DNA of 64,000 nucleotides, taken from an uncultured Planctomycetota bacterium. GTDB taxonomy: Bacteria; Planctomycetota; Phycisphaerae; SM23-33. The notes below the pieces were generated by a model, which made no database searches, had not been told where the DNA came from, and saw nothing but the letters and a program-made list of their open reading frames with translations. The translations under genes were made by a program, and so were the position numbers. Of this stretch, positions 5,566-51,178 are shown piece after piece; position 1 is the first letter of the stretch, and each line of letters starts with the position of its first letter. The DNA lies in contig CAITIS010000001.1 of assembly GCA_903892515.1 (NCBI GenBank), positions 13,552-77,551 on the forward strand. Direction: 5' to 3'.

Positions 5566-6786
5566 TCATAGTTCGCTACCTCGATTCTCTCTGGCGTAGC
5601 TTCGCCACGCCGGCTGGTTCATCCGCAGGCTCGTCCCGCGATCGTCGGCCGGGGCGGTGGCATCGCCCAGTTCCACCTTCAGTGACAGCAGCTTGAGCAG
5701 ATCCTTGAGCGTGATGATGCCCGCCAGCTGGTCGCCCTCGACGACCAGCAACCGGCTTATGCCCGAGCGGCTCATGCGTTCCATCGCCTCCATCGCATCG
5801 GCCTGGGCACTGATGGTATTCTCGGCTCGGGCCGGTTCCAGGATGTCCCCCACCGTGTACGTGTTCCACTGCGCTGGAAGCAGATCCTTGACCTGTTCGG
5901 CCCCCACGTAACCCAGCAGCTTGCCATCCTCGACGACCGGATACATCCTGAAATGGTGGCGATACAGGTACTCTTCCACCAGCCGCCGCACGTTCAGCAC
6001 GGGCGGGACGGTGAGGGGCTCAGAACTCATGAAGTGGGCCACGCTCTCGCCGGACAAGGCCTGACGCAGCACGATCTGCTGGTAGCTCTGCTTGGCGGCC
6101 ATCCGTAGAAACATTCCGATCAGGAAGTACCAGATGCCGCCAATCGCATCGCTGCTGATGAAACGAAACGCCCCCAGCAGCATCAGCAGCAGGCCGAAGC
6201 CCCCGCCGATCTGCGCGGCCACGCGCGTGGCCCAGCGGAGGTTGTCGCGCCAGTACCACAAGGCCGATCGCAGCACGCGCCCGCCGTCGAGCGGGAAGCC
6301 CGGAATCAGGTTAAAAGCGGCCAGGATCACGTTGATGAGCGCCAGCCACAGGCAGACGGTCGAAGCCGCGGTGGAAGCGCCGGCCACGTGGCAAATGGCC
6401 CACAATCCATAGAAAAGCCCGCCCAGAATGACGCTGCTGATGGGCCCGGCGATGGCCATCCAGAACTCAGCCTTGGCGCTAGGCGGCTCGCCGTCCATCT
6501 CCGAAACGCCACCGAAGATGAAGAGCGTAATGCCCTTCATCGTCATGCCGTGGCGGCGGGCGATGAGCGAGTGGCTCAGTTCGTGCAGCACGACCGAGAG
6601 GAAAAGCCCACAGGCCCCGATGACACCCATGGCCCAGTACACCGTCGAGGCGTGACCAGGAGCCCAGGCGGGAAAGACCGCCACCGCCAGCGACCAGGTA
6701 ATCAGCATCGCCAAGATCAACCAACTCATGTCAACCCGGATGGAAAAGCCAAAGAGCGTAAAAAGCGTGACTCGCTTGCCAAACAT
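5566..6786 (-). CDS. Site-2 protease family (peptidase M50) zinc metalloprotease with tandem CBS domains
   Basis: HELSH zinc-binding motif within a multi-TM region; C-terminal CBS pair. Confidence 0.75.
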   Translation of the reverse strand: MFGKRVTLFTLFGFSIRVDMSWLILAMLITWSLAVAVFPAWAPGHASTVYWAMGVIGACGLFLSVVLHELSHSLIARRHGMTMKGITLFIFGGVSEMDGEPPSAKAEFWMAIAGPISSVILGGLFYGLWAICHVAGASTAASTVCLWLALINVILAAFNLIPGFPLDGGRVLRSALWYWRDNLRWATRVAAQIGGGFGLLLMLLGAFRFISSDAIGGIWYFLIGMFLRMAAKQSYQQIVLRQALSGESVAHFMSSEPLTVPPVLNVRRLVEEYLYRHHFRMYPVVEDGKLLGYVGAEQVKDLLPAQWNTYTVGDILEPARAENTISAQADAMEAMERMSRSGISRLLVVEGDQLAGIITLKDLLKLLSLKVELGDATAPADDRGTSLRMNQPAWRSYARENRGSEL

Positions 6787-6835
6787 TTGCTGACTCCTCG
6801 TTTGACTGCACCATCATAGCGCGGGGAGAACGAGG

Positions 6836-6966
6836 TCATAGGTCGTAGGTCGTAGGGCGCAGGGTAATACACGTCAGCCAACAGCGCGGACCGCGCCCAT
6901 GCACCGCTTGCCGTCAGCGGCCCATGACCTACGACCTACGACCTATGACCTATGACCTATGACCTC
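6836..6966. repeat. Inverted pair of heptamer tandem arrays (GGTCGTA/GGGCGTA ... TACGACC/TATGACC) forming a long hairpin with ~55-nt loop
   Basis: Left arm 6836-6866 is the reverse complement of right arm 6925-6966; lies between the M50 protease start and the PRC-barrel gene. Confidence 0.7.
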
Positions 6967-7045
6967 GCTTTTCCGCATCGCCTATAATTCATCAAGGAAT
7001 GGGCCTGGGGCCCGGCCTCCGGGAGCCTCAGGCCGGAGGTGCAAC

Positions 7046-7858
7046 ATGCTGTTGAGTGCAAGAAAGTTGGAACACTTCACGCTCCGCGCGTTTGACGGCG
7101 AGATCGGCAAGGTGCATGACTTCCTGTTCGAGGACAATCAATGGTTGCTGCGCTACATGGTGGCCGACACGCGACGCTGGCTGCCCGGCCGGCAGGTGCT
7201 GATTGCCCCGGCCTCGCTGGGTGAGCCCGAACTGACGAATCGCGACTTGCCCGTGTCGCTCAGTATCGACCAACTCCGCAACAGCCCCGGAATCGAGACG
7301 GACCGGCCCGTGTCGCGGCAATTGGAAGGCGACTTGAGCACCTACTATGGCTGGCCCATGTACTGGTATGGCCCCTCAGCCATCGGCGCTGGCGCCATGC
7401 CCGAGCCCATGTCCGGCCTGCCGATTCCGGGCGCGATGGGCCATGCGACCGACCCGTATCGAATGGAACCCGCTTCGGCGTCGGCCTCGGCCACAGCCAC
7501 CATAGAGCCCGAAACGGGCGACCCGCATCTGCGCAGCATGCGTGAGCTGGTTGGCTACCGAATCGCTGCCACGGATGGCGACATTGGGCACCTTGACGAT
7601 TTCCTGCTGGAGACGAAGAGTTGGGCGGTGCGCTACCTAGTCGTGGACATCCGAAACTGGCTGCCCGGCCGAAAAGTTCTGGTGGCCCCGCCGTGGATCA
7701 GCCGGTTCGTCTGGGAAAAAGCCAAGGTGCATGTGGACCTGCCGCGTGAACTCATCCGCACGGCCCCGGAGTTTGACCCCAATGCGCCCGTCGCGCGAGA
7801 GTACGAAGATGCCCTGCATCGGCACTACGACCGCGACCGGTACTGGGACGATTTCTAG
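7046..7858 (+). CDS. Tandem PRC-barrel domain protein
   Basis: Two repeats of a PRC-barrel-like segment (FDGEIGKVHDFLFEDNQW...RYMVADTRRWLPGRQVLIAP and ATDGDIGHLDDFLLETKSW...RYLVVDIRNWLPGRKVLVAP); the ORF-track start at 6959 lies inside the repeat array, so the ATG at 7046 is preferred. Confidence 0.5.
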   Translation: MLLSARKLEHFTLRAFDGEIGKVHDFLFEDNQWLLRYMVADTRRWLPGRQVLIAPASLGEPELTNRDLPVSLSIDQLRNSPGIETDRPVSRQLEGDLSTYYGWPMYWYGPSAIGAGAMPEPMSGLPIPGAMGHATDPYRMEPASASASATATIEPETGDPHLRSMRELVGYRIAATDGDIGHLDDFLLETKSWAVRYLVVDIRNWLPGRKVLVAPPWISRFVWEKAKVHVDLPRELIRTAPEFDPNAPVAREYEDALHRHYDRDRYWDDF

Positions 7859-7865
7859 GAGGTTT

Positions 7866-7900
7866 GCCCCGTGGCACAGCCGCCCCGGGCTGTGCTCTTT
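7866..7900 (+). terminator. REP-like terminator hairpin (CCCGTGGCACAGCCGCCCnnGGCTGTG + T-tract), copy 1
   Basis: 8 nt after the PRC-barrel stop; stem CACAGCC/GGCTGTG followed by CTCTTTGG. Confidence 0.55.
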
Positions 7901-8046
7901 GGTCGCGATGGGTGGCATGGTCACGCTGTTCGCGTGACCATGTAAGGATCTTCCACGCGGAGGATTTTCCACTCAGTGATGTTCTGGATATGAAGCAACC
8001 TCAAGCAGCACTCGGTGGGTGGGATGTGCGCTCTCGCCAACGGGAA

Positions 8047-8244
8047 TCAGCCCATCACGACGTGCTGCTCGACATTATGCGGCTCAGCCACGTTCAAGCT
8101 GGCCAGGTAGCCGCGAATGGCGTGGTCGAGATGAACGCGTGCCTCATCCTGGGACCGCGCCCGAACCATGCAGCCAGGGAGCGACGGGCACCACGCCCGG
8201 AATCGGTCCGATGACTCCTGCACAATCTTAACCATCAGTCTCAT
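8047..8244 (-). CDS. HicB-like (UPF0150) antitoxin-family protein, orphan
   Basis: 65 aa; WCPSLPGCMVRARSQDEARVHLDHAIRGYL matches the HicB/UPF0150 core (DLPGC...EA...AI..YL); no HicA-like ORF in any frame within 200 bp on either side. Confidence 0.45.
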   Translation of the reverse strand: MRLMVKIVQESSDRFRAWCPSLPGCMVRARSQDEARVHLDHAIRGYLASLNVAEPHNVEQHVVMG

Positions 8245-8472
8245 GTGCTCCCTGCCTTTCAACGCGGCGAAAGACCCACAACGAGCCTCTCGTTTGACCC
8301 TCCTATTAGAGGCGAGAAGTGTGAACTCTGCAATCCGTGTAGCACACTGCTTCTTGTCTAGGGGAAACGCCCAGACCAGATAGGAGAAGGCTGAGCCCGA
8401 AGGCCAGAGGCATGACGAACTTGAGGATTCTCGGTTTGCCGTCCAGACTGAACTTCGGGACCGGGCATCGCC

Positions 8473-8506
8473 CCTACGCCCTACGCCCTATGCCCTACGC
8501 CCTACC
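8473..8506. repeat. Heptamer tandem array (TACGCCC)x5
   Basis: CCTACGCCCTACGCCCTATGCCCTACGCCCTACC immediately downstream of the GT2 stop. Confidence 0.7.
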
Positions 8507-8507
8507 T

Positions 8508-9692
8508 CTATACCTTGCTGCCGGCCGAGTACGTGGTGTTGCGCCAGGCGATCTTGGCACCCTTGCGCATCTTGCCCAAGGCCATGACCAGCGCCGCCAA
8601 GCCCACGCCGCAGCCAAGCGGGTAGCTCCAGAACAAGCCGCTGCGGGCCTTGACCATGTCGTAAAAGCGATAGATCACGCTAAGTTGCATGACGATGGCT
8701 GTCAGGGCGACGCCCAGCAGCACCTTGGCCAGCCCCGCCGGCCCAACGCCCAGCCCGCCCGCAGCCAGCCCCAGCAGCGCCGCCATGTACGGCCAGAGGC
8801 TGATCAGCGCCAGCACCACCAGCGATGCCACCACCCGCCGCACCGTGCCGAACGTGCCGTAGTAGATGCGGCTCCAACCACGAAGCATTTCCTGTAAGCT
8901 TCGATACATGCGCACGATGCACAAGTCTCCGTTGCGGATCACGCGGATGTTCAGGCCCTGCTTCTTCATTCGCCAGGCCATGTGCATGTCCTCGTTGACC
9001 TCGCTCTTGACGGCCTCGTGGGTGCCGATCCGCTCGTACGCCTCGCGCCGCATGAGCATGAACGCCCCATTGGCGTATCCCTGCGGCTTGGCGGGGTTGT
9101 TCACCTTGGCGGGGTGGAACCAGATCATCATGATGGCGCTGCACACGGGCATGCCGGCGTTCTCCCAGAAGCCCTGCATCTCCAGGCTGGGCAGGACGCT
9201 GAGCAGGTCGATCTTCTCCTTCTGGGCATACTCCAAGGCGACCGACAGCGCCCGCGGCGAGACCAGCCGGCAGTCGGCGTCGGTCATGAAAATCCATTCG
9301 CCGGCGCTGGCGGAAATGGCGTGGGACATGGCGTGGTTCTTGCCGCACCAGCCCTTGTCCAGGTGGTCGATGTTGATCAGGTGGGCCCGGGCGTCGCCGG
9401 CGATGGTCGATTCGACGATCTGGGCCGTGCGGTCTGAGGAGCGGTCGTTGGCGACGAAGATTTCGAGGTTCTGATAGTCCTGGCTCATCAACCCGCGGAC
9501 GCAGGCATCGATGCAGCATTCCTCGTCCTTGGCCGCGACAAAGGCCGAGAGCTTCGGGCCGGTCGCGGGGGCCGGGTAATCCGAACTCAGCAGGAAGTCG
9601 TGACAGTGGTGGCTGATTTCAAAGTGCCGGCTGATCCAGACCAGCAGGCTCAGGCTCGTCAGCACGATCAAGGCGATCATTACAGCAGTCAT
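8508..9692 (-). CDS. Glycosyltransferase family 2 membrane protein
   Basis: GT-A fold with DXD-like TDADCRL; N-terminal and C-terminal TM segments. Confidence 0.75.
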   Translation of the reverse strand: MTAVMIALIVLTSLSLLVWISRHFEISHHCHDFLLSSDYPAPATGPKLSAFVAAKDEECCIDACVRGLMSQDYQNLEIFVANDRSSDRTAQIVESTIAGDARAHLINIDHLDKGWCGKNHAMSHAISASAGEWIFMTDADCRLVSPRALSVALEYAQKEKIDLLSVLPSLEMQGFWENAGMPVCSAIMMIWFHPAKVNNPAKPQGYANGAFMLMRREAYERIGTHEAVKSEVNEDMHMAWRMKKQGLNIRVIRNGDLCIVRMYRSLQEMLRGWSRIYYGTFGTVRRVVASLVVLALISLWPYMAALLGLAAGGLGVGPAGLAKVLLGVALTAIVMQLSVIYRFYDMVKARSGLFWSYPLGCGVGLAALVMALGKMRKGAKIAWRNTTYSAGSKV

Positions 9693-13612: not shown

Positions 13613-15499
13613 ATGAGTTGCGAGAGAGTTCCGGTGGCCGTATTTGAGGATTCCAAGGCCGCGTCCGTGGCCGTCGCCCGCCGCATCGCCGAGATCATGC
13701 GAGCCAAGGCTGCCGAAGGCAAGAACGCCGTGCTGGGCCTGGCCACCGGCCACACGCCCGTGGCCGTATACGCCGAGTTGATCCGCCTGCACAAAGAGGA
13801 AGGCCTGGACTTCTCCAACGTCGTGACCTTCAACCTCGACGAGTACTGGCCCATCGCTCCGAGCGTCATGCAGAGCTACTGGGCATGGATGCACGAGCAT
13901 CTGTTCAACCACGTGAACGTCAAGCCCGAGAACATCCACATTCCGCCCGGCGAGGTGAAGGAAGCTGAAATCGCCAAGCTCTGCCGCCAGTACGAGCACA
14001 ACATCACCAAGGCCGGCGGCATCGACCTGCAGATCCTGGGCATCGGGCTGTCGGGACACATCGGCTTTAACGAGCCCGGCTCGGCGCGCGACAGCCGCAC
14101 GCGCCGCATCGTGCTGGACCGCGTGACCCGCAAGGCCGCCGCCAGCGACTTCTTCGGCGAGGAGAACGTCCCGTCCATGGCCATCACCATGGGCGTGGGC
14201 ACCATCCTGGACGCCCGCGAGATTTGCCTGCTGGCCTTCGGCGAGCACAAGGCCTCCATCGTGCAGCGTTCCGTCGAGGGCGAGATCAACGCGACCATCG
14301 CGGCCACGTACCTGCAAAAGCACCCTAACGCGAAGTTCTACCTCGACGACGCCGCGGCCGCCCGGCTGACGCGCTTCGAGACGCCCTGGGAAATGGGCTC
14401 CTGCCAGTGGGATGACATGCTGGAACGCCACGCGGTGATCTGGCTTGCCCGGAAGGTGAACAAGGCCGTCCTGCGGCTGACGGACGAAGATTACGTCGAG
14501 CACGGGCTGGGCGAACTGCGGGCCCGCGGCGGCGCGTACGACATCAACCTCAAGGTCTTCCGCTACCTGATGAACACCATCACGGGCTGGCCGGCGGGCA
14601 AGAGCAAGAAGCGGCGCGTGCTGATCTTCAGCCCGCACCCCGACGACGACGTGATCTGCATGGCCGGCACGATGACCCGCCTGGTCGAACAGGGCCACGA
14701 AGTGCACGTGGCGTACATGGTCAGCGGCTACCTGAGCGTGTTCGACCACGACGTGTCGCGCTACGCCGACTTCGTGCGCGAGTTCAACAAGATCTTCGGC
14801 GTCATGCCCGAACAGTCGGCCACCATCGAGCAGCACATCGACAAGTTCCTCAAGCAGAAGAGGCCCGGCGACATCGACACCACGGAAATCCAGTCGCTCA
14901 AGGGCCTGATCCGCCGGGCCGAGGCCATCGACGCCGCCAAGTACTGCGGCATCGAGGAGAGCCGCTGCCACTTCCTGGACATGCCCTTCTACAACACCGG
15001 CAAGGTGCAGAAGCTGTCGATCGGCGAGGCCGACATCTCGGCCGTGCGCAAGGTGCTCGAGACCGTCAAGCCGGACATGATCTTTGCCGCCGGCGACCTG
15101 TCCGACCCGCATGGCACGCACCGGCTGTGCGGCGAGGCGGGGTTCATCGCACTGGATCAGTACCTTGCCGCCGGCAACGCCAAGCCGGAGCTGTGGCTGT
15201 ATCGCGGCGCGTGGCAGGAGTGGAGCCCCGAGCAGATTTCCATGGCCGTGCCGCTCTCGCCCGATGAACTCAAGAGCAAGCGGTTCGCCATCTTCCGCCA
15301 CCAGAGCCAGAAGGACCGCGCCATGTTCCCGGGCCCCTTCGACAGCCGCGAGTTCTGGCAGCGGGCCGAGGAACGCAACATCTCCACCGCCAAGCTGTAC
15401 GACGATCTGGGCCTGCCGGAATACCACGCCATGGAGGCCTTCGCCGTCTGGCCGCTGAAGCGTCCAGCCAACCACGATCAGCAGATGACGAAGATATAG
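13613..15499 (+). CDS. nagB: Glucosamine-6-phosphate deaminase (NagB) fused to LmbE/PIG-L-family deacetylase domain
   Basis: N-term NagB motifs (GLATGHTP, FNLDEY, GIGLSGHIGFNEPGS); C-term PIG-L motif VLIFSPHPDDDVICMAGT. Confidence 0.8.
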   Translation: MSCERVPVAVFEDSKAASVAVARRIAEIMRAKAAEGKNAVLGLATGHTPVAVYAELIRLHKEEGLDFSNVVTFNLDEYWPIAPSVMQSYWAWMHEHLFNHVNVKPENIHIPPGEVKEAEIAKLCRQYEHNITKAGGIDLQILGIGLSGHIGFNEPGSARDSRTRRIVLDRVTRKAAASDFFGEENVPSMAITMGVGTILDAREICLLAFGEHKASIVQRSVEGEINATIAATYLQKHPNAKFYLDDAAAARLTRFETPWEMGSCQWDDMLERHAVIWLARKVNKAVLRLTDEDYVEHGLGELRARGGAYDINLKVFRYLMNTITGWPAGKSKKRRVLIFSPHPDDDVICMAGTMTRLVEQGHEVHVAYMVSGYLSVFDHDVSRYADFVREFNKIFGVMPEQSATIEQHIDKFLKQKRPGDIDTTEIQSLKGLIRRAEAIDAAKYCGIEESRCHFLDMPFYNTGKVQKLSIGEADISAVRKVLETVKPDMIFAAGDLSDPHGTHRLCGEAGFIALDQYLAAGNAKPELWLYRGAWQEWSPEQISMAVPLSPDELKSKRFAIFRHQSQKDRAMFPGPFDSREFWQRAEERNISTAKLYDDLGLPEYHAMEAFAVWPLKRPANHDQQMTKI

Positions 15500-15536
15500 G
15501 GCGTAGGGCGTAGGGCGTAGGGCGTAGGGCGTAGGG
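15498..15536. repeat. Heptamer tandem array (GGGCGTA)x5
   Basis: Overlaps the nagB stop codon. Confidence 0.75.
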
Positions 15537-15697
15537 AAAAACAAGACTGGGCCACAGAGACGCAGAGGGCTCAGAGAAGACAAGATTTCAATGCGGCGCG
15601 TGTGCAACTGGTTGTACGCGCGCCGGATGGTTGTGTACCACGACAGTCCGTAGGCTGGGCCGAGGAATTCTTTCCGAGGCCCACCTTCGGCGTCCCG

Positions 15698-15741
15698 GCT
15701 TCCCGCTTCCCGATTCCCGCTTCCCGATTCCCGCTTCCCGT
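15698..15741. repeat. Heptamer tandem array (TTCCCGN)x6
   Basis: CTTCCCGCTTCCCGATTCCCGCTTCCCGATTCCCGCTTCCCG. Confidence 0.75.
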
Positions 15742-16337: not shown

Positions 16338-17798
16338 ATGCGGCTGACACCTCAGGGCGTGCGTTGCCTCAGCGAAAGCGAAATCCAGGCCATCGTCGAT
16401 ACGTCGCTGAACATCCTCGACGAGATCGGCATGATCATCGAGAGCCCGTTCATCTGCCAGCGCTTCGTCGAGGCCGGGGCCGCGTGGGACGGGCAAACCC
16501 GTCTGAAGTTCCCGCGCTCGCTCATGCGGCGGTACATCGAGTCGCAGCGGCGCGAGAATTTCCCCGCGCCCGTGCCGCGCGAACCGCACGTGGGCGGCAG
16601 CATCGGCAGCTACCCGATGCGGTACCTCGACCCCTACGACCGCACCATCAAGCTGCACACCGCCCGCAGCGTGGCCGACCTGACCCGCCTGGCCGACGCC
16701 GTGCCCAACATCGATGGCATCGGCTCGTGCGGCGTGCCGTCGGACATCTCGCCGCTGCTCCAGCCGCTGTGGATGCGGTTTATTTCCTGGCGGTACGCCG
16801 AGAAGCTCTCCAACTCCTACGTGCTGTGGGATCACCGGCTTTGCCCGCTGATCGCCGAGTTCGCCGAGACGGTCTCGGCCATGGAACCGCAGAACGGCGG
16901 CGTGAAGCGGTACTTCCGCGGCGAGAACTACATCATCACCCCGCTGCGGTATGCCCGCGAAGAGGCCCTGCAATTCGAGTGGTTCTACCAGCACGGCTAC
17001 CGGGTGACAGTGGGCAACTTGCCGTCCATCGGCGGCTCGGCGCCCAGCACGATGGCCGGCGCGGTGGCGCTGGGGTTGGCGGAGTCGCTGGTCATCAACT
17101 TCTGGCAACACGTGTTCTATGGCGACAAGGGCCTGTACGTGGCGTGTGCGATTCCGCCGCTGGACATGCGCACCGGCTGCATGCCCTACGGGAGGCCGGA
17201 GCAGACGCTGACGGCCCTGGCCATGTCGCAGATCGCCGATGCCATCGGCGCGCTGGATACCGGCAGCACCGGCCACGGCACGGCCGCCAAGGGCCCCAAC
17301 ATCGAGGCCGGGCTCAACAAGGGTTTTGGGGCCGGCATGCAACTGGCCCTGTTCGGCGACGTTGACTGGCACTTCGGCATCTTCAGCACCGACGAAATCT
17401 ACGACCCGCGGCTGATCCTGATCGAGAACGAGTTCGTGGACAGCCTGCGTCGCATCAGCCGGGGCTTTGAGGTGACGCCCGAGACGCTGGCGTACGACGT
17501 GATTCGCGAGGTCGGCGCCGGCGGGCAGTTCCTCTCGCACCCGCACACGCACGAGCACTTCCGCCAGGAACTGTGGCTGCCCGACTTGTTTAATGGCATG
17601 TATATGGAAGGCTGGATGGCCGCCGGCAGGCCGGAGATTTTAGAGCGGGCTCGGGACAAGGTGCTGGATATCCTGGCCAGCCACCACCCGCGCGGCATCA
17701 AGCCCGAGACGGAAGAAGCGTTGCTCTCGCTGATGGACAAGTACGCCGCCGAGCTGAACCTGACGGACTACGTCCGGCCAACAGATTTGCCAAAGTAG
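16338..17798 (+). CDS. MttB-superfamily (trimethylamine/glycine-betaine-type) corrinoid methyltransferase homolog, no in-frame amber codon
   Basis: 486 aa, the length and N-terminal pattern (LSESEIQAIVDTSLNILDEIGM) of the MttB family; uninterrupted ORF, so a non-pyrrolysine member. Confidence 0.55.
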   Translation: MRLTPQGVRCLSESEIQAIVDTSLNILDEIGMIIESPFICQRFVEAGAAWDGQTRLKFPRSLMRRYIESQRRENFPAPVPREPHVGGSIGSYPMRYLDPYDRTIKLHTARSVADLTRLADAVPNIDGIGSCGVPSDISPLLQPLWMRFISWRYAEKLSNSYVLWDHRLCPLIAEFAETVSAMEPQNGGVKRYFRGENYIITPLRYAREEALQFEWFYQHGYRVTVGNLPSIGGSAPSTMAGAVALGLAESLVINFWQHVFYGDKGLYVACAIPPLDMRTGCMPYGRPEQTLTALAMSQIADAIGALDTGSTGHGTAAKGPNIEAGLNKGFGAGMQLALFGDVDWHFGIFSTDEIYDPRLILIENEFVDSLRRISRGFEVTPETLAYDVIREVGAGGQFLSHPHTHEHFRQELWLPDLFNGMYMEGWMAAGRPEILERARDKVLDILASHHPRGIKPETEEALLSLMDKYAAELNLTDYVRPTDLPK

Positions 17799-17814: not shown

Positions 17815-17849
17815 GGTTGGCCCCGTGGCAAAGCCGCCCTCGGCTGTGC
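17815..17849 (+). terminator. REP-like terminator hairpin, copy 2
   Basis: GGCCCCGTGGCAAAGCCGCCCTCGGCTGTGCG, 17 nt after the MttB stop. Confidence 0.55.
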
Positions 17850-17859
17850 GAACCAGCGT

Positions 17860-17912
17860 TTTCACGGGTCCGTCTTCACGGGTCCGTTTTCACGGGTCCG
17901 TTTTCACGGGTG
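17860..17912. repeat. 13-mer tandem array (TTCACGGGTCCGT)x4
   Basis: Direct tandem copies between convergent MttB and lon. Confidence 0.7.
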
Positions 17913-23315: not shown

Positions 23316-26300
23316 TCATCGATCCTGCGTATCCCTTGTATCCCTGCGAACCTTGGGCCACAAACCGACGGCTATCAAAGTCAGCAAGGCGGCCGCCTGC
23401 ACGTACACCAGGCCCACAACAACCGTTGAGGCCGCCAGCGGCTCGGGCGGCTGCGAGGCCACCAAGCCCAATAGATCGGCCTTGACGCCGGTTTTTCCTG
23501 AGACGAGCTTGGGCGAAGGCGCCGCCTGAGCCCAGAACTCACCCTCTGCCGGTGCGGCGGCGAGCACGTCGCGGCGAAGGTCGATCGCCTCATCCCACCG
23601 CAGCCTCTCCATCGCGGTGGCCGAATCGGGCTCGACGGTTACACGCTCGGGCCTCCAGTGCGGCCCCTGGACCCGCAAGTTTTCGTAGATGTGCACCGGC
23701 AGATCGTCGGAGTGGATGGCCGGCAGCCCGTCGGGCGTCAGGTCGTGATAGATGGCCGAGGGCCCCGCGTGGCCACTGGACGCCGTGGCCACGGCACCCG
23801 GCTGAGAAGCTGCGGCCCCGACCGACATGTCGTTCCCGCTTCCCGACTCCCGATTCCCGATTCCCGACTCCCGATTCCCGCTTCCCGATTCCAGATTCCC
23901 GCTTCCCGCCGGTATCTCCCGTAACTGGACGTTGCGAATCTCTACCGCCCCGCGACTGGTCGTGGCCAGCAGGAACAACCCCGCCTCTTTCGCGCCCATA
24001 AAGAGCTGCCCAACGTGCCGCCACGTCGGCGTAAGCTGCTCGGCGGACAGCCGGATTCGCGACTGGAACTCCCGCCACCAGGCTTGCCCCAGCCCTGGCC
24101 GCCAGCCGCCGATAAAGACATTGTCAGCCCCGTGCGGCGCGCGAATGTCCATATCGATCCGGTACAGGCCATCCTCCAGCGTCACTGGCCAGGTCTTCAC
24201 GTCGGCATTATTGGCAGCGCTGGCTTGGAGCGTGATCTCCCCTACCGCCGGCAGCAGGTTTGCCCCCGGCTGGGCCAGGGGCCACTGCGCCGACTCTATG
24301 ACCTGGCGATACACCGGGTCGGCCGCCAGGACGTAGCGGACGTCAAAGAGGCTCAGCAGCCGGTTGTCGCGGATGAGCCACTGCCAGAAGCAGTTCTCGC
24401 CCCAGGGCTCAAAGCCAAACATTCTGGCGTGTTCCAGCGGTTGCAGCGGGCCGTAGTAGGAAATGCTGGCGATGCCGAACAAGGCTGAGCAGTTGGGCAG
24501 CAGCAGTTCCGCCGGCCGATGATGGTAGTCGCGCGAAAGTCCCCACACACGGAACGGTTGGCCAGCGGCGTGCTGGGCCAGCCAGGCAGCGGCTGGGGAG
24601 ACCTCCGGGTCGATCCGCTTGTCCGGCGGCGGGACGTCGACGAACCGACAGAGGATAAACAGGTCCAGCAGCAACAGCGGCAGGAGAATCAGCAGGCGTC
24701 TGTCTGAACGGCCAGGCACACTAACTATGGGTGCCACACCTGCGGCGTTTGCAGGTGTGCTGTCACGCACGGCTGCAGACTCCGCAGCCGTGGCACCCGG
24801 CGATGTAGAATCTGGTTCTTTCGTAGCACAGCCGCCCTCGGCTGTGGTCTTTTGTTCTTTCGTAGCACAGCCGCCCTCGGCTGTGGTCTTTTCCGCGGGC
24901 GATACTCCCGTGGCCCGACCAAGCGCAATCACCGTCAGCGCCAGCAGCGCCACCGGCACGTAGAAGGCCGGGCTTTTCCATTCCAGCGCTTGCTGCACCG
25001 ACTGCGCCACCGAGTGCGGCACGTTCAGCACCGGCGCCATCGCTTCCAACCGGCCGGTGCGGGCGGCCATTAGCAGTCCCAGCGACAGCAGGCACATTAC
25101 CCCGGCCAGGAAGATGCAGACCTTGCTGAGCGTTAGTTTCCAGGCCTCGTCGCGGCGGATGAGCCACCAGTGCATGCCGATGGCCGAGAGCGCCGCCAAG
25201 GCCAGGTCGAGCGTCAGCACCATCCTGGCCGGGCAGCGAACCTTGCCCAGCACCGGCAGCCAGTACATCAGCCGGTACGTCGGCAGGTATCCGCCCAGCA
25301 TCCAGACGAACGCCCCGGCGCCCAGCCACACCCACAGCCGCACCAGGGGCCCCAGCGGACCGGCCTGCTGCTCTTGCCGCCGCCGATACAACGCCAGCAC
25401 GGCCGCTGCCGCCAGGATCAGCGTGATCAGCCCGACGTAGCCCAGCATCTCGCACTGGTGCCACGGCCCCCACCACTTTTGACTGAAGAAGTTGGGGTCG
25501 CGATTGCCCAGCAAGAACGGGAACAACGCCAGCACGGTTGAGAGCGGGAAGAAGGAGTTCTCGATGGCGGTGGAATACGCCAAGCCCGCGCGGAAGGTCG
25601 CTTGCATGCCCAGCATCGTGACATATATCTGGCTGGCCATAAGCAGGCCTGCCAGCACGCCAGCTGCCAGCGCCGCGGGGATCGCGAACTTCAAAGGCCT
25701 TCCACGCACGAGCAGGTACACGCCGATGGGCAGACTCATCTGGATCACCGTCGGCCAATGACCTGCCGCCAGGGCCAGCGCCATCGCCCCAGCCAGCACC
25801 GCCAGGCCACGACGGACGCCCGCGTGCCACTGCGCGCGCTGGTTCGGGTGCCACTGCTGCGGCGTGTGCAGCAGTGTGGTTACAGCCGCGACCGACTTTG
25901 GCCGCATCAGTTCGATGCCCAGCAGAGCCCACGGCAGCAGGCCGGCAGTCTGGATGACGCCCAGGTGCACGCGGTGGCCGACCATGAAGCCGCAGAACAT
26001 GAACACGATGGCGCCGAACGCCCCGGCCTCGTCACGCAGCCCCAGCCGGCGCAGGTACACGAACGCCCCCACGCCGGCCGTGCCAAAGGCCAGGAACAGG
26101 CACAGGCTGTACGCCAGTTTCGCGGGCAAGGCCACGAAGAGCCAGTTGGGCGGAAAGAACACGCTGGATTGCGGGTCGGCCATCAGCGACGTGCCGGTGG
26201 CCGAAAATGGGTTCCACAGTGGCAGGTGGCCTTGCCGCAGCGCATCGGCCGTCAGCACGCGCACGGGATAAAAGAAGACGACGTCATCCTCGCCGGCCGA

Positions 26301-26381
26301 CGTGGGATCGGTCCACAGCGGGTACAGCATTCCCGCCGGCAGCAGGACGAGCAACAGAATGGTTAGCCAAGGGCGTGGCAT
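23316..26381 (-). CDS. YfhO-family large polytopic membrane protein (GT-C-like) carrying in-frame copies of two genome repeat families
   Basis: About 14 N-terminal TM helices, a large extracytoplasmic C-domain and a terminal TM; internal repeats TTAEGGCATKEQK x2 and GSGNRES x4 are encoded by the REP and TTCCCGN repeats. Confidence 0.55.
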   Translation of the reverse strand: MPRPWLTILLLVLLPAGMLYPLWTDPTSAGEDDVVFFYPVRVLTADALRQGHLPLWNPFSATGTSLMADPQSSVFFPPNWLFVALPAKLAYSLCLFLAFGTAGVGAFVYLRRLGLRDEAGAFGAIVFMFCGFMVGHRVHLGVIQTAGLLPWALLGIELMRPKSVAAVTTLLHTPQQWHPNQRAQWHAGVRRGLAVLAGAMALALAAGHWPTVIQMSLPIGVYLLVRGRPLKFAIPAALAAGVLAGLLMASQIYVTMLGMQATFRAGLAYSTAIENSFFPLSTVLALFPFLLGNRDPNFFSQKWWGPWHQCEMLGYVGLITLILAAAAVLALYRRRQEQQAGPLGPLVRLWVWLGAGAFVWMLGGYLPTYRLMYWLPVLGKVRCPARMVLTLDLALAALSAIGMHWWLIRRDEAWKLTLSKVCIFLAGVMCLLSLGLLMAARTGRLEAMAPVLNVPHSVAQSVQQALEWKSPAFYVPVALLALTVIALGRATGVSPAEKTTAEGGCATKEQKTTAEGGCATKEPDSTSPGATAAESAAVRDSTPANAAGVAPIVSVPGRSDRRLLILLPLLLLDLFILCRFVDVPPPDKRIDPEVSPAAAWLAQHAAGQPFRVWGLSRDYHHRPAELLLPNCSALFGIASISYYGPLQPLEHARMFGFEPWGENCFWQWLIRDNRLLSLFDVRYVLAADPVYRQVIESAQWPLAQPGANLLPAVGEITLQASAANNADVKTWPVTLEDGLYRIDMDIRAPHGADNVFIGGWRPGLGQAWWREFQSRIRLSAEQLTPTWRHVGQLFMGAKEAGLFLLATTSRGAVEIRNVQLREIPAGSGNLESGSGNRESGIGNRESGSGNDMSVGAAASQPGAVATASSGHAGPSAIYHDLTPDGLPAIHSDDLPVHIYENLRVQGPHWRPERVTVEPDSATAMERLRWDEAIDLRRDVLAAAPAEGEFWAQAAPSPKLVSGKTGVKADLLGLVASQPPEPLAASTVVVGLVYVQAAALLTLIAVGLWPKVRRDTRDTQDR
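23832..23909. repeat. TTCCCGN heptamer array (about 11 units) inside the YfhO-like CDS, in frame (encodes GSGNRES repeats)
   Basis: Same repeat family as 15698-15741 and 28441-28516. Confidence 0.75.
24815..24893. repeat. Two tandem REP-like hairpin units (TTCTTTCGTAGCACAGCCGCCCTCGGCTGTGGTCTTTTG) inside the YfhO-like CDS, in frame
   Basis: Identical 40-mer units also occur at 46141-46215. Confidence 0.75.
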
Positions 26382-26387
26382 GGTGGT

Positions 26388-26468
26388 TCGTGAATCCGTT
26401 TACTCGTGAATTCGTTGATCCGTTAATTCGTTAATTCGTTAACTCGTGAATCCGTTGAATTCGCTCAT
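26388..26468. repeat. Degenerate tandem repeats of CGTGAATCCGTT / AATTCGTTA upstream of the YfhO-like gene
   Basis: GGTTCGTGAATCCGTTTACTCGTGAATTCGTTGATCCGTTAATTCGTTAATTCGTTAACTCGTGAATCCGTTGAATTCG. Confidence 0.6.
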
Positions 26469-26536: not shown

Positions 26537-27517
26537 CTATTTCCCCGCGATGGCCTTGAGGTTCGCCAGCGGCGTCTTCAGCGGGATGGCGCACTCCGGG
26601 CCGACCACGTCGATGCCCGCCGTCGCCGCGGCCTGGGCCATTGCCCGAATCTCCTGACTCGTGCCTTGCAGCAGGCGGTAATTGCTGATGCCGCCCATCA
26701 GGGCCATTCGCTCGCCGGCCAGTTTGCGGACCTCCGCGGGCGAGCCCGTCTTGGTGTCCCAATGGAAGCACCCCATGCCGGTCTGCTCGATCATGCCGAT
26801 GCGGTCGGAGGTATTGCCGCAGATGTGCAGCACCAGCGGGGCGGCAATCTCCCGCACCAGTTGGCTGTGCACCGGCAGCAGGAAGTCGCGATACGCGCCG
26901 GGGCTGCACAGGTCGCGCGTGGCGTGGTCGGCCAGCAGCAGGCAATCGGCCCCGGCGTCCAGTTGGGCCTTGGCAAAAGCCAGCGTCACCGGCAGCAGGC
27001 GAGAGAGGATCTCACGCGTGGCCGAGGAACTGTCGATGGTGCCCATGAGGAAGTTTTCCACGCCGAACAAATGATACGCCAGCGTCCAAGGCCCGAAGAC
27101 CTTGCCGCACACCGCGGCCGCTCCGGACAGCCGCTTTTTCAGCAGGCCAATCGCCTCCAGCGGCACACGACAGCCCGGCCGATGCAGCAGGTCCGGCGGA
27201 ATCACGATGTCCTCAGCCGAGCGGAAGATCGGAGAGCCGCTCTCGGGCATCTGCTCGCTCGTGCCCCAGTTGACATTGCAGCCAATGGCGGCCACCTCGT
27301 GACAGACCGAGAACAGCGGCATCACCACGTCCATGCCCAGCACGCTGTAGCCGGCGATGGCCAGGTCGGCCATCTGCTCAGGATCGAGGTGCGCCTGCGG
27401 AAAGTACGCGCCCGTCTCGTGCATGAGTTCCACGCAGGCAATGGACGTGCCCGTGCCGAAGACCGGCTGGCCGTCGCCCTTGCGACCGATGGCGTTGAGG
27501 AATCGTTTCTGGCTCAT
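26537..27517 (-). CDS. Uroporphyrinogen-decarboxylase-fold MtaA/CmuA-family methyltransferase
   Basis: UroD-like pattern (MSQKRFLNAIGRKGDGQPVFG...YSVLGMDVVMPLFSVCHEVAAIGCNVNWG); the upstream ORF-track extension to 27673 is encoded by a heptamer repeat and was rejected. Confidence 0.55.
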   Translation of the reverse strand: MSQKRFLNAIGRKGDGQPVFGTGTSIACVELMHETGAYFPQAHLDPEQMADLAIAGYSVLGMDVVMPLFSVCHEVAAIGCNVNWGTSEQMPESGSPIFRSAEDIVIPPDLLHRPGCRVPLEAIGLLKKRLSGAAAVCGKVFGPWTLAYHLFGVENFLMGTIDSSSATREILSRLLPVTLAFAKAQLDAGADCLLLADHATRDLCSPGAYRDFLLPVHSQLVREIAAPLVLHICGNTSDRIGMIEQTGMGCFHWDTKTGSPAEVRKLAGERMALMGGISNYRLLQGTSQEIRAMAQAAATAGIDVVGPECAIPLKTPLANLKAIAGK

Positions 27518-27538
27518 GGCGGAAAAGATAACACTTGG

Positions 27539-27565
27539 AGGGCGTAGGGCATAGGGCGTAGGGGC
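27539..27565. repeat. Heptamer array (GGGCGTA/GGGCATA)x3
   Basis: Immediately upstream of the MtaA-like start. Confidence 0.6.
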
Positions 27566-28341: not shown

Positions 28342-28440
28342 ACGGGGCCGGTGAAGTGGCCCGTTGCGATGCTTGAACAAGAAAGGCTGGCAGGTCAGGA
28401 GACCCGCCAGCCCTTTTGATTGAGGTAATCGCCGTCCTCC

Positions 28441-28516
28441 GGCTTCCCGATTCCCGCTTCCCGAATCCCGCTTCCGGCTTGCCCGAATCCCGATTCCCGT
28501 TTTCCCGATTCCCGGC
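28441..28516. repeat. TTCCCGN heptamer array
   Basis: GGCTTCCCGATTCCCGCTTCCCGAATCCCGCTTCCGGCTTGCCCGAATCCCGATTCCCGTTTTCCCGATTCCCGG. Confidence 0.7.
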
Positions 28517-28524
28517 TTCTCCCG

Positions 28525-29904: not shown

Positions 29905-29976
29905 GAACTTCTCCGATCAAGCCAGGCGAGGCCTTCGGTCCACAGGCCCGCAGCAGAAAGAAGGGCGAAAGACAGG

Positions 29977-30057
29977 GTGTAGGTCGTAGGGCGTAGGGCG
30001 TAGGGAAATACGCCAAACCGCCGCGTCTCTTCCCTACGCCCTATGCCCTACGCCCTT
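29977..30057. terminator. Long hairpin built from inverted GGGCGTA heptamer arrays (stem ~20 bp, loop ~25 nt)
   Basis: GTAGGTCGTAGGGCGTAGGGCGTAGGGAAATACGCCAAACCGCCGCGTCTCTTCCCTACGCCCTATGCCCTACGCCC, downstream of the sensor kinase stop. Confidence 0.55.
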
Positions 30058-30271
30058 CCTTCTGCTGGGGGCCCATGGCCATGCCTGTCATATATCGACT
30101 GGCTGAGGCATCAGGATACCAGAGAATCGGCGATCTGTGTGAAGCTGAGTTTCATCGGAAAACGCGCCGATGAATCGAGCGGACCCGCACGCCGGGTGCC
30201 GTGGCCGCGGAGTCCAGCGGCCACGTTCAAAGAGCGACATGCCCGCGACACACGAACAACACTCGTCCGCC

Positions 30272-39378: not shown

Positions 39379-39560
39379 GAGAAGAACCACAAAGGGCACA
39401 AAGAGAAGACTTGCACAGCAGCAAGAGAAGAACCACAAAGGGCACAAAGAGAAGACTTACACAGCGGCAAGAAGAAGAACTCAAAGGCCACAAAGAGAGA
39501 CCAGGCCAAGAATAAGCCAAGCTGCAGGGTACAACGAGAAGAACAGAGACGACACAAAGA
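39361..39560. repeat. 46-bp tandem repeat (~2.5 units) rich in CCACAAAGGGCACAAAGAG
   Basis: Starts inside the last purL codons; no unique spacers, so not CRISPR. Confidence 0.7.
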
Positions 39561-39970: not shown

Positions 39971-40005
39971 CTTCGTGCCCTTTGTGCCCTTTGTGGTTCA
40001 AGAAG
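39969..40005. repeat. Inverted copy (CTTCGTGCCCTTTGTGCCCTTTGTGG) of the upstream CCACAAAG repeat
   Basis: Reverse complement of repeat units at 39383-39405; lies immediately after the GxxExxY stop. Confidence 0.65.
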
Positions 40006-40785: not shown

Positions 40786-40866
40786 GGCCCCGTGGCAGCT
40801 CGGCGAACCCGTGGCGCAGCCCGCGGCCGAACCCGTGGCACAGCCGCCCTGGGCTGTGGCTTTTGC
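40786..40866 (+). terminator. REP-like hairpin cluster (3 degenerate units), copy 3
   Basis: CCCCGTGGCAGCTCGGCGAA / CCCGTGGCGCAGCCCGCGGCCGAA / CCCGTGGCACAGCCGCCCTGGGCTGTGGCTTTTG, 21 nt after the purQ stop. Confidence 0.5.
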
Positions 40867-46100: not shown

Positions 46101-46215
46101 GCTCGCCCCGTGGCACAGCCGCCCCCGGCTGTGAACTTTGCTTCTTTCGTAGCACAGCCGCCCTCGGCTGTGGTCTTTGCTTCTTTCGTAGCACAGCCGC
46201 CCTCGGCTGTGGACT
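46101..46215 (+). terminator. REP-like hairpin array (3 units), copy 4
   Basis: Units 2 and 3 are identical to the 40-mers at 24815-24893; the array lies ~45 nt after the zinc-ribbon gene stop. Confidence 0.6.
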
Positions 46216-48100: not shown

Positions 48101-48254
48101 CAGGCCAGTCAAACACGAACGAAGGAGATGTGGTTATACGCGGGAATTACGGCGATATCAGGTACCTGATATTAGGAAAGACAGGTGTGGTCTAGCCGGC
48201 CCTGTCTTTCCCGATATCTGATATCTAATATCCAATATCGAATCCCGGCCGCTC

Positions 48255-51004: not shown

Positions 51005-51178
51005 TTCGTGCTGCTTGTGCTGTGCTGGCCCGGTGCCGTGATTTGCGCAGCAACCACGTTTGCCCTTTCCTCGCGGCCTCTGTGGCAAAAGCAGTCTGCC
51101 TCTTGCCGTTCCGTTTGTCTCTTGCCGTGCCGCCCTTTGTGCCCTTCGTGATGCCGCTCTTCGTGCCCTTTGTGGTGC
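51005..51178. repeat. Degenerate CTTCGTGCCCTTTGTG-type repeats (same family as the purL/GxxExxY flank)
   Basis: GCCGCCCTTTGTGCCCTTCGTGATGCCGCTCTTCGTGCCCTTTGTGGTG between convergent genes. Confidence 0.55.

Follow-up and report, generated by a model that had tools for sequence, protein, structure and literature searches.

Strand-specific placement of GGGCGTA heptamer arrays at gene boundaries in a Planctomycetota genome

Our results show that GGGCGTA heptamers form real tandem arrays in an uncultured Planctomycetota bacterium, that their placement is far from random, and that it obeys one geometric rule, by which the G-rich strand has the nearest open reading frame (ORF) to its 5' side. The analysis covered a stretch of 64,000 nucleotides (hereafter the window), together with related and unrelated loci from other genomes. 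We are highly confident that the GGGCGTA arrays are a lineage-specific member of the known class of G-rich heptameric simple sequence repeats (SSRs) (Rehm et al. 2015).

Seven GGGCGTA-type arrays, each of 3.6-6 units in head-to-tail tandem, were found in the window (Table 1). An earlier note on this DNA had proposed a dispersed heptamer family and named six array loci, all of which are present within +/-3 nt of the coordinates it gave; the gene boundaries at which it had placed them (the GT2 stop, the NagB stop, the gap between the histidine kinase (HK) and TrpB2, and the region upstream of the MtaA-like gene) are also correct. The family is genuine, as the 14-mer GGGCGTAGGGCGTA, searched with <=2 mismatches, has 20 matches in the window against 0.48 expected, a count that 0 of 100 shuffles reached. 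Period-7 arrays number 11 in the window and 0 in shuffles (period 8 gives 2 arrays and period 9 gives 1), and their density is 1.09 per 10 kb, compared with 0.03 in 665 kb of contigs of TrpB2 relatives. All seven GGGCGTA-type arrays are intergenic or overlap nothing but a stop codon, and their units include the decayed variants GGTCRTA and GGGCATA. The number of G3 tracts per array is 1, 2, 3(+1), 4, 4, 5 and 6, and the window arrays do not show the preference for four units (four G-tracts) that belongs to the class of Rehm et al. 2015. A peak at four G-tracts in other genomes was rejected as an ascertainment artefact of the 21-mer seed, because with that seed a fourth tract needs only 3 more bases. 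Translation of the C-rich strand gives PYALRP, in agreement with the coding-frame artefact suggested previously, and read-through ORFs with TPYALRP repeats on this strand are spurious products of the arrays. Matches were obtained neither in a literature search for the unit GGGCGTA nor when the window was scanned against Rfam at gathering thresholds and for tRNAs.

Table 1. Positions of heptamer arrays and associated features in the window
Feature	Position	Strand	Remarks
Left arm, inverted pair 1	6833..6864	+	AGGTCAT AGGTCGT AGGTCGT AGGGCGC AGGG, decayed GGGCGTA units
Right arm, inverted pair 1	6919..6965	G-rich strand -	six GGTCRTA units
Promoter-like site	6959..6988	+	ATGACC-18 nt-TATAAT, 10/12 matches, consensus match only
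(GGGCGTA)~5	8472..8508	-	sense strand of GT2 gene, directly at TAG stop (8510-8508)
(GGGCGTA)5.7, perfect	15497..15536	+	first TAG of array is the stop of the NagB/PIG-L fusion gene
(GGGAAKC)6.7	15693..15740	-	sense strand of metallophosphoesterase gene, 2 nt after stop; G4 predicted
(GGGARTC/GGGAAGC)11	23833..23909	-	inside continuous 1021-codon ORF 23316-26381 (- strand)
GGGCGTA GGGCATA GGGCGTA GGG	27537..27563	+	4 G-tracts
(GGGAAKC)~10	28438..28519	-	sense strand of TrpB2, 5 nt after stop; two G4s predicted
Left arm, inverted pair 2	29974..30005	+	69 nt upstream of TrpB2 ATG (29904, - strand)
Whole palindromic element, pair 2	29945..30075	.	stem ~45 bp
Right arm, inverted pair 2	30032..30058	-	4 G-tracts on - strand

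The geometric rule takes two forms in the window. In the four single arrays that follow stops, those of the GT2, NagB, metallophosphoesterase and TrpB2 genes, the G-rich strand is the sense strand and the array starts 0-5 nt from the stop (4/4), in intergenic spaces of 244-650 nt, and all four sit at convergent junctions. In arrays upstream of starts the G-rich strand is antisense, at distances of 18 nt (array 27537-27563, URO-D/MtaA-like ATG at 27518, - strand), 46 nt (left arm of pair 1, M50 protease ATG at 6786, - strand), 69 nt (left arm of pair 2) and 80 nt (right arm of pair 1, PRC-barrel protein ATG at 7046, + strand). The NagB/PIG-L fusion protein has 628 aa, within the 626-633 aa typical of its homologues; therefore, the array that supplies its stop codon begins where the native stop is. 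Divergent regions hold two of the seven loci (6833-6965 and 27537), a small sample for comparison with the under-representation between divergent ORFs that belongs to the class (Rehm et al. 2015).

The same rule was found outside this genome. Among 119 loci from other phyla, ORFs of >=150 codons end 5' of the G-rich strand in 49 arrays and have the opposite orientation in 8, a count to be read with the fact that the GGGCGTA unit carries TAG in all three frames and that the array itself contains 29 of the 49 stops. A further 40 arrays in these loci sit immediately upstream of an ORF that runs along the C-rich strand. Where an after-stop array has a downstream gene in its locus, that gene is convergent in 18 of 29 cases, and 6 after-stop arrays of other genomes are <=30 nt from the next co-directional start, i.e. 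inside operons. Many phyla have scattered genomes that are rich in GGGCGTA, among them Pirellulaceae M30B19, Peribacteraceae STB_147 and Gemmatimonadetes bin.87. In viral contigs it is not special, being no commoner (2 loci) than GGGAATC (3) or composition-matched control heptamers (3 and 8). The 80 metagenome loci with TrpB2 relatives, 72-82% identical, hold few heptamer arrays, and their units are different; NagB relatives are <=72% identical and not syntenic.

Four of the seven arrays are arranged as two inverted pairs. Both pairs are convergent, as are those of two other loci (L073 and L120), and no divergent pair was seen. At the pair 1 locus, which the earlier note had flagged as GGGCGTA/GGTCGTA, the heptamer array was confirmed, and its units are mostly decayed GGTCRTA rather than GGGCGTA. 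The order of unit variants (CAT, CGT, CGT) is common to both arms, and the stem has two arms of 31 nt (6833-6863 and 6928-6958) with a complementarity of 90%, including 24 nt of perfect pairing, and a distance of 64 nt between them. The pair is located between the start codons of the divergent M50 protease and PRC-barrel genes, and its last heptamer unit forms the -35-like hexamer of the only promoter-like site (a consensus match) in 6600-8700. In pair 2 a distance of 22 nt separates two stem arms of 27 nt (29981-30007 and 30030-30056), whose complementarity is 93%; the left arm has ~19 nt of extra degenerate units that bulge from the stem, and the stem continues past the arrays into the unique flanks GCAGCAGAAAGAAGGGCG and CGCCCTTCCTTCTGCTGG. 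This pair lies between the co-directional HK and TrpB2 genes, its right arm 213 nt downstream of the HK stop (30272). The long hairpins that had been suggested for the inverted pairs were supported by RNA folding, with energies of -74 to -91 kcal/mol and z scores of -7.8 to -10.9 (-73.8/-82.5 kcal/mol for pair 1 and -91.4/-90.5 kcal/mol for pair 2 on either strand).

Single arrays are predicted to fold differently. With the G-quadruplex (G4) support of ViennaRNA, the predicted minimum free energy (MFE) structure of the G-rich strand includes a three-layer G4 in every single array, with a gain of 2-5.5 kcal/mol; the GT2 array at 8472-8508, which has 5 G-tracts, is one of them. The C-rich strand is predicted to be nearly unstructured (-8 to -14 kcal/mol). 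Canonical G4 motifs number 13 in the window, compared with 4.9 expected, and 9 of the 13 are heptamer arrays. Based on these predictions, the arrays probably have the potential to form structures. However, canonical G4 potential is lost in pair 1 and in the left arm of pair 2, and heptamers that are not G-rich make the same kind of arrays and pairs (GATATCT here, GAATATT and AGGCTTG in relatives), so G4 formation cannot be the general explanation. The idea that after-stop arrays are more G4-competent than the rest was also rejected, since the competent share is 70% in after-stop arrays and 71% in the others.

A second family, GGGAAKC, which the earlier note had not mentioned, has 20 matches in the window against 0.57 expected and includes the exact Xanthomonas unit GGGAATC. 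Its arrays follow the same placement rules as those of GGGCGTA. One of its three arrays is inside an ORF, and to the left and right of this array GC3 is highest in the frame of that ORF. Co-occurrence of GGGAATC with GGGCGTA is not general, as only one GGGAATC array was found in the 119 loci. The genome also has a separate REP-like family of terminator hairpins, CACAGCCG-CCCT-CGGCTGTG, of the hairpin-plus-T type and located 17-74 nt after stops. Genes with this hairpin have no G-array after the stop, and G-array genes have no such hairpin.

The class to which we assign the GGGCGTA arrays has been described as GGGAATC in Xanthomonas and as GGGGAYT (STRR) in Nostoc PCC 7120, with the same positional rules and with convergent inverted pairs frequent (Rehm et al. 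2015, PMC4692102). The window arrays share with it the tandem G3N4 heptamers, the dispersed and mostly intergenic distribution and the lack of any tie to mobile elements or surface genes, and the second family of the window is literally GGGAATC/GGGAAGC. GGGCGTA itself misses the GGGNATC / (GGGANTN)n consensus, differing at positions 4-7, while GGGAAKC fits it; GGGCGTA is therefore a sister unit and not the same repeat. Other differences are the Planctomycetota (Phycisphaerae-like) host, the presence of two units in one genome, the loss of G-tracts in some window arrays, and a density several-fold higher than in Xanthomonas (~1 per 6 kb versus ~186 arrays per roughly 5 Mb). In addition, divergent genes flank two of the seven window loci, which is seldom the case in Xanthomonas. 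GGGAATC forms G4 by CD spectroscopy (Rehm et al. 2015, PMC4692102); for GGGCGTA the G4 is a predicted one.

Other repeat systems resemble the arrays in part. The STRR of heterocystous cyanobacteria, reportedly described by Mazel et al. in 1990 with the units CCCCAGT, TTGGTCA and CAACAGT, are likewise tandem heptanucleotide arrays, highly iterated and intergenic, but their units and phylum differ. REP elements are single imperfect palindromes of 20-40 nt mobilised by RAYT transposases, and they are said to stabilise upstream mRNA and to affect translation within ~15 nt of a stop (the work reportedly of Newbury in 1987 and of Liang, Rudd and Deutscher in 2015). Like REPs and BIMEs, the window arrays are dispersed extragenic elements at gene 3' ends whose adjacent inverted copies can form hairpins; unlike them, they consist of tandem copies of a heptamer that is not palindromic, and no RAYT was seen among the window ORFs scanned. 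TAACTGA direct repeats of marine Beggiatoaceae, Cyanobacteria and Bacteroidetes (MacGregor 2015, PMC4679880) are also tandem copies of one exact heptamer at many intergenic sites, patchy across phyla and with no evident transfer mechanism. The TAACTGA repeats, however, are AT-rich and belong to the sense strand a few nt before start codons, where a translational role has been proposed (PMC4679880), whereas GGGCGTA sits after stops on the sense strand. A CRISPR array does not fit, since the units are contiguous 7-mers and not 23-50-nt repeats with unique spacers. Nor does a MITE, which would have terminal inverted repeats, a target-site duplication and several copies of the entire element; the flanks of both palindromic elements are unique in the window.

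An assembly artefact was also ruled out, as four independent metagenome assemblies carry identical arrays. These assemblies (L001, L002, L202 and L203, from different samples) are 99.94-100% identical with 0-10 SNPs, and array lengths are the same in all of them, a comparison of consensus assemblies at very shallow divergence.

The explanation that we prefer is that the arrays are slippage-born G-rich SSRs which act as structural punctuation of transcript 3' ends. As a whole this account is tentative, close to evenly balanced but on the doubtful side. Arrays would arise and grow by slipped-strand mispairing, and inverted pairs would come from inverted duplication or conversion of an array with further slippage on one arm. 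They would become fixed at gene ends in the orientation that puts the nearest ORF 5' of the G-rich strand, so that this strand would be the mRNA sense strand 0-5 nt after a stop or antisense shortly upstream of a start. Single arrays with at least four G3 tracts could form a three-layer G4 in the 3' UTR of the RNA or in non-template DNA, and paired arrays could fold into 27-45 bp hairpins rather than G4. Such structures may serve as a barrier to 3' exonucleases and/or as an aid to pausing or termination, which at the arrays would insulate convergent genes, and the arrays may share this niche with the hairpin-plus-T terminator family of the genome. The 3'-end function in itself seems possible rather than probable. 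Counting against it are the lack of a U-tract after the arrays, the presence of some arrays of other genomes inside operons, where a terminator would be harmful, and the two of seven loci that are in divergent promoter regions; moreover, enrichment at convergent junctions is also predicted by a model of pure tolerance.

According to the tolerance model, the arrays are slippage products without a function of their own, and purifying selection leaves the observed positions and orientation by removing arrays that do harm, either to promoters and ORFs or by bringing template-strand G4 or C-rich RNA that attracts Rho into transcripts. We regard this as a possible account, though a rather unlikely one. 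It agrees with the many unrelated tandem repeats that are found at gene ends in this genome and are present at 8 of ~12 convergent junctions, with the lineage specificity of the units, with the ordinary frequency of GGGCGTA in viral contigs, with the decay of G-tracts in some arrays and with a G4 competence that is independent of context. Polymerase slippage has been put forward as the cause of heptamer over-representation (Mrazek 2007, as summarised in PMC4679880 and PMC4692102), and pyrimidine-rich RNA is a Rho target which purine-rich sense strands avoid (PMC13323073). However, the purine bias that would be a sign of such Rho-avoidance pressure is only weak in the sense strands of window genes (0.508), the arrays are stable across four populations, and arrays upstream of starts would leave the gene downstream with C-rich stretches in its sense strand. 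Tolerance also leaves unexplained the start of arrays 0-5 nt from the stop in much wider intergenic spaces, as well as the inverted pairs that are always convergent. A different use of the C-rich strand, which we consider quite unlikely, would make the arrays orientation-dependent antisense suppressors or protein-binding arrays: either (UACGCCC)n would be a Rho-loading site transcribed only by polymerases that enter a gene from its 3' end, or a multimeric protein that binds RNA or DNA would recognise the repeats, as proposed for TAACTGA heptamers (PMC4679880). The strand rule, the convergent-junction enrichment and the C-rich strand, predicted to be almost unstructured, fit this account, and Rho has been reported to suppress pyrimidine-rich antisense transcripts (PMC13323073). 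It is weakened by units that differ between lineages and by the coexistence of two units in this genome; termination would fall inside the ORF and not before it, and the genes beside the arrays include no candidate for a binding protein. With 27-40 nt, the arrays also have about half the length of a typical rut site.

Canonical intrinsic terminators consist of a GC-rich stem with a loop of 3-8 nt followed by a T/U run. The inverted pairs had been named in the earlier note as strong candidates for bidirectional terminators, and they do resemble intrinsic terminators in their GC-rich stems after genes, with possible 3'-end formation, and in hairpins that are very stable on both strands; pair 2, in addition, is between co-directional genes, beyond the HK stop, and is bordered on each side by pyrimidine-rich sequence (TCTTTC, TTCTTTCT). 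But no T-run follows the arrays, a terminator scan of 6600-8700 was negative at the arrays there, the geometry, with loops of 22-64 nt and stems of 27-45 bp, departs widely from the canonical one, single arrays are stemless, and the genome has its own canonical hairpin-plus-T family. Pair 1 sits between two divergent starts with nothing upstream to terminate, and its G-tracts are lost and no U-tract follows, so the bidirectional terminator does not fit; for the pairs in general we judge this reading very unlikely. Contingency loci of Haemophilus and Neisseria have units of 1-5 nt (occasionally 7) in the 5' coding regions of surface genes or in promoter spacers, and are hypervariable. The suggestion that the arrays are loci of this type, with strain-dependent copy number switching gene expression by phase variation, is highly improbable. 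Short tandem units are intrinsically prone to slippage, pair 1 reaches with its last unit into a -35-like hexamer and one GGGAAKC array is in-frame inside an ORF; yet array lengths are invariant in four assemblies up to 10 SNPs apart, most arrays are after the stops of housekeeping genes and outside 5' coding regions, and added upstream units would leave the -35/-10 spacing unchanged. GGGAATC was likewise judged not to be a phase-variation locus (Rehm et al., PMC4692102). We give as little credence to REP- or MITE-like mobile elements of RAYT type, or to horizontal transfer together with a repeat-making enzyme. The abundance of GGGCGTA in scattered genomes of many phyla and the extension of the pair 2 stem beyond its arrays speak for such elements, but no conserved flank motif was found around 142 arrays, the flanks of the two window pairs are unrelated, no transposase, RAYT or Y1 domain was detected in 46 window ORFs scanned (four short ones left out), the unit itself is non-palindromic and control heptamers are equally frequent in viral contigs. 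The earlier view that the unit differs from REP families typical of Proteobacteria holds, and with a non-palindromic heptamer and no conserved flanks the arrays are not REP elements.

Over-represented heptameric repeats go back to 1990 in the literature (STRR), and the surveys of 2007 and 2015 led to no accepted function. To this our results add the unit GGGCGTA, in a phylum without a described class in the literature searched; two G3N4 units that follow the same strict strand, side and 0-5 nt rule in one genome; an ORF-side rule for GGGCGTA that was replicated in the 119 loci of many phyla; and an apparent either/or between arrays and hairpin-plus-T terminators. Together, these four additions make the hypothesis of a 3'-end signal directly testable. 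A broader hypothesis is that stop-abutting, sense-strand G-rich arrays are a widespread non-canonical 3'-end signal. An RNA G4 or an R-loop would pause or terminate transcription and/or block 3' exonucleases, and the signal would be interchangeable with hairpin terminators in Planctomycetota, Xanthomonas, cyanobacteria and other phyla. We consider this broader hypothesis unlikely, but if true, the position of the ORF on the 5' side would reflect function and the 35-year-old STRR/heptamer puzzle would be answered.

Short-read assemblies are broken by heptamer arrays, and the metagenome contig L002 ends inside the array at 8472-8508. The window also holds an octamer array, TTAACGAA, at 26387-26463, which is nearer to the TAACTGA repeats than GGGCGTA is.

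The heptamer arrays described in the earlier note were recovered at the same positions by sequence reading, Tandem Repeats Finder and our own period-7 scan (table), and they lie, as it had proposed, at gene boundaries: the GT2 stop, the NagB stop, the HK/TrpB2 gap and upstream of the MtaA-like gene. The GGGCGTA repeats are a genuine, strongly non-random family, with 20 matches in the window to the 14-mer GGGCGTAGGGCGTA at up to 2 mismatches (0.48 expected), and period 7 stands out with 11 arrays against 0 in shuffles, period 8 giving 2 and period 9 giving 1. Array lengths are equal wherever L001, L002, L202 and L203, independent assemblies of one population from different samples (99.94-100% identity, 0-10 SNPs relative to the window), overlap it. 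Because four independent assemblies carry the same lengths, the arrays are neither assembly artefacts nor hypervariable, and the possible copy-number variation raised earlier was not seen among them. The C-rich strand translates as the artefactual peptide PYALRP, as noted before, and has no stop codons, so that spurious ORFs read through the arrays. The repeats also fragment metagenome assemblies: the L002 contig ends inside the 8472 array, and three other short-read contigs (L062, L089 and L103) likewise end in GGGCGTA arrays.

Repeat features of the window (strand is that of the G-rich sequence for heptamer arrays)
Family	Position	Strand	Context
GGGCGTA type	6833-6864	+	left arm, pair 1
GGGCGTA type	6919-6965	-	right arm, pair 1
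GGGCGTA	8472-8508	-	
GGGCGTA	15497-15536	+	5.7 perfect units
GGGCGTA type	27537-27563	+	
GGGCGTA type	29974-30005	+	left arm, pair 2
GGGCGTA type	30032-30058	-	right arm, pair 2
GGGAAKC	15693-15740	-	2 nt after metallophosphoesterase stop, sense strand
GGGAAKC	23833-23909	-	77 nt, in frame within 1021-codon ORF
GGGAAKC	28438-28519	-	5 nt after TrpB2 stop, sense strand
Hairpin-plus-T	7875-7894, 17829-17848, 24827-24885, 40839-40858, 46114-46211	+	
Hairpin-plus-T	55134-55153	-	
CACAAAGGGCACAAAG	39360-39498	+	overlap PurSL stop as 46-bp units
CACAAAGGGCACAAAG	39971-39995	-	inverted, 14 nt before PurQ start
CACAAAGGGCACAAAG	51126-51178	-	2 nt after ROK stop, sense strand

A second family, GGGAAKC (GGGAATC/GGGAAGC), had been overlooked and has 20 matches in the window against 0.57 expected. 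Both units consist of three G and four loop bases (G3N4), and their placement relative to genes, which were assigned by Pfam, follows a strict orientation. All four single G3N4 arrays found after stops in the window are sense-oriented, at most 5 nt from the stop and at convergent junctions; arrays upstream of starts are all antisense, and the nearest ORF always lies 5' of the array as read on its G-rich strand. The GT2 TAG marks the start of the 8472 array, which has its G-rich strand as sense. NagB ends at the first TAG within the 15497 array, and since this protein has the same length as its homologues (the nearest NagB/PIG-L homologues are at most 72% identical and named Phycisphaerae, Sedimentisphaerales or Planctomycetes), the native stop is where the array starts. 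Judged by the names of these homologues, the window most likely comes from a member of the Planctomycetota that lacks closely related sequenced genomes. Antisense in orientation, the 27537 array is 18 nt upstream of the URO-D/MtaA-like ATG. Both inverted pairs are convergent, with a G-rich arm 5' on either strand; pair 2 is located between the HK stop and the TrpB2 start, and pair 1 between the divergent start codons of an M50 protease (ATG 6786, with GAGGAG as a good Shine-Dalgarno match) and a PRC-barrel protein (ATG 7046). The sole promoter-like site in 6600-8700 (6959-6988, + strand, ATGACC-18 nt-TATAAT) takes its -35-like hexamer from the last heptamer unit of pair 1, and a GC-rich hairpin after it overlaps the GGAGG Shine-Dalgarno of the PRC-barrel gene (7000-7040).

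These rules have been described before for other units. Rehm et al. (2015) reported GGGAATC repeats in Xanthomonas and GGGGAYT in Nostoc that are intergenic, lie nearest to the 5'-neighbouring ORF in either orientation, include 70-75 convergent inverted pairs per genome and form G-quadruplexes (G4) in vitro; they are tied neither to mobile elements nor to phase variation and have no assigned function (PMC4692102). The second family of the window includes the exact Xanthomonas unit, and GGGCGTA, as a sister unit, follows these rules too. Mrazek et al. (2007), as later papers summarise, reported heptamers to be over-represented in large, GC-rich genomes, and a single heptamer, TAACTGA, is patchy across phyla (MacGregor 2015; PMC4679880). 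No mention of GGGCGTA repeats was found within the searchable literature; the family is a newly noted unit of an already described, functionally unexplained class.

Scanning one genome per species for exact copies of (GGGCGTA)3 gave at least 119 loci with local G+C of 41 to 74%, and the matches listed include Planctomycetota (at least 9 loci in one Pirellulaceae MAG), Patescibacteria, Gemmatimonadota, Chloroflexota, Bacteroidota, Pseudomonadota, Actinomycetota, Acidobacteriota and Cyanobacteria. Among these listed matches, 49 arrays have an ORF of at least 150 codons ending on the 5' side of their G-rich strand and 8 have one in the C-rich orientation, a count to be read with the TAG present in all three frames of the unit, as 29 of the 49 stops fall inside the array; 40 more arrays are found immediately 5' of an ORF on the C strand. 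When the locus includes a downstream gene, 18 of 29 after-stop arrays face a convergent gene and 6 have a co-directional start no more than 30 nt away. The same matches showed no conserved flank motif, and G4 competence was not higher in after-stop arrays than in others. Loop positions vary somewhat more than G positions (43, 59, 81 and 70 changes against 41, 40 and 26), which is a modest indication at most. An apparent peak at four G-tracts was rejected as an artefact of the search seed. Arrays reach 371 nt in Coralloluteibacterium thermophilus (L048, 6343-6713) and are also very long in Pirellulaceae M30B19 (L013, 6531-6687; L035, 6391-6512; L090, 1903-2062), where, as in L048, sub-blocks of GGGCGTA, GGGCTCA, GGGCGAA and GGGCGTG alternate, the GGGC core being constant while the loop changes.

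GGGCGTA is probably not exceptional as a unit, since composition-matched heptamers are at least as common in viral contigs. Heptamer arrays are scarce in relatives (0.03 per 10 kb against 1.09 in the window), where AGGCTTG inverted arrays directly follow a trpB2 stop (L150, 2342-2520) and a Phycisphaerae MAG has GAATATT inverted arrays 19 nt downstream of a stop (L208, 3357-3434); non-G-rich heptamers therefore behave similarly. In the window, a GATATCT-type array (48211-48243) lies 11 nt after a Mur-ligase stop. The heptamer-array habit extends beyond G4-capable units.

As G3N4 repeats, four units of either family make a canonical G4 motif, and heptamer arrays account for 9 of the 13 such motifs in the window (4.9 expected). 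G4-aware folding predicted that the G-rich strand of every single array adopts a three-layer G4 at minimum energy, with the C-rich strands almost unstructured. For the inverted pairs the hairpin is favoured in the prediction by a wide margin, and folding confirmed the long hairpins proposed earlier for both, whichever strand is taken (-74 to -91 kcal/mol; z from -7.8 to -10.9). In pair 1 both arms consist of GGTCRTA units and lack a G4 motif, their unit variants come in the same order (CAT, CGT, CGT), and 24 nt are perfectly complementary; the stem of pair 2 runs on into unique flanks, and one arm has ~19 extra nt of degenerate units. Slippage would account for the arrays, and for the pairs an array may first have undergone inverted duplication or conversion, with slippage on a single arm coming later, because independent slippage on both arms would not give this pattern.

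A dispersed terminator-like hairpin, CCCGTGG-CACAGCCG-CCCT-CGGCTGTG-G(C/T)CTTTTG, has 9 copies in the window (0.01 expected), mostly sense and 17-74 nt after stops (PRC-barrel, MttB, PurQ and HK-RR genes), and looks like a REP-like or terminator family of the source genome. Two of its sites carry it as tandemly amplified 39-bp units, and the genes it follows lack G-arrays.

Beyond the repeat class, its geometry to genes, its predicted structures and its stability across populations, which stand as observed, we tentatively favour a function of the arrays as structural punctuation of transcript 3' ends, given that after-stop arrays are in sense orientation and sit at the stop, that arrays are enriched at convergent junctions, and that a separate hairpin-plus-T family occurs behind genes without G-arrays. 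A bolder and less probable reading is that such arrays are a general non-canonical 3'-end signal. The main rival to the punctuation role, about equally probable, is that they are tolerated slippage products with orientation filtered by selection, which could act against C-rich, Rho-attracting sense RNA (PMC13323073), but the sense-strand purine bias is weak in the window.

Antisense suppression or protein binding by the arrays seems unlikely. The earlier proposal that inverted pairs are bidirectional intrinsic terminators is more doubtful still, being contradicted at pair 1 by its divergent context and missing U-tract. Contingency loci and mobile elements are both very improbable; no transposase domain was found in the 46 window ORFs scanned with Pfam, all but four short ones.

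The 1021-codon ORF (23316-26381, - strand) has no Pfam match. Two 39-bp hairpin units (24815-24892, 2 x 13 codons) and the GGGAAKC array both lie within it without a stop, and its GC3 falls around 24680-24860; the alternatives are a single protein tolerating repeat insertions and several genes chance-fused in one frame. The octamer TTAACGAA, with variants, is repeated in tandem about 9.5 times (26387-26463, - strand sense), from 73 nt after the MtaA-like stop to 5 nt before the ATG of this ORF, recalling the Beggiatoaceae TAACTGA repeats just upstream of start codons. The CACAAAGGGCACAAAG family (8 matches, 0.04 expected) is another G-containing post-stop repeat, and four tandem copies of the 14-mer CGTTTTCACGGGTC (17857-17911) immediately follow the terminator-like hairpin behind the MttB stop at the convergent MttB/Lon junction. 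The MttB-family methyltransferase (16338-17798), whose gene has no in-frame stop and is therefore of the non-pyrrolysine type, together with the URO-D/MtaA-like methyltransferase (26537-27518) and a B12-binding radical-SAM protein (33968-35833), suggests corrinoid-dependent methyl transfer in a planctomycete-like genome.
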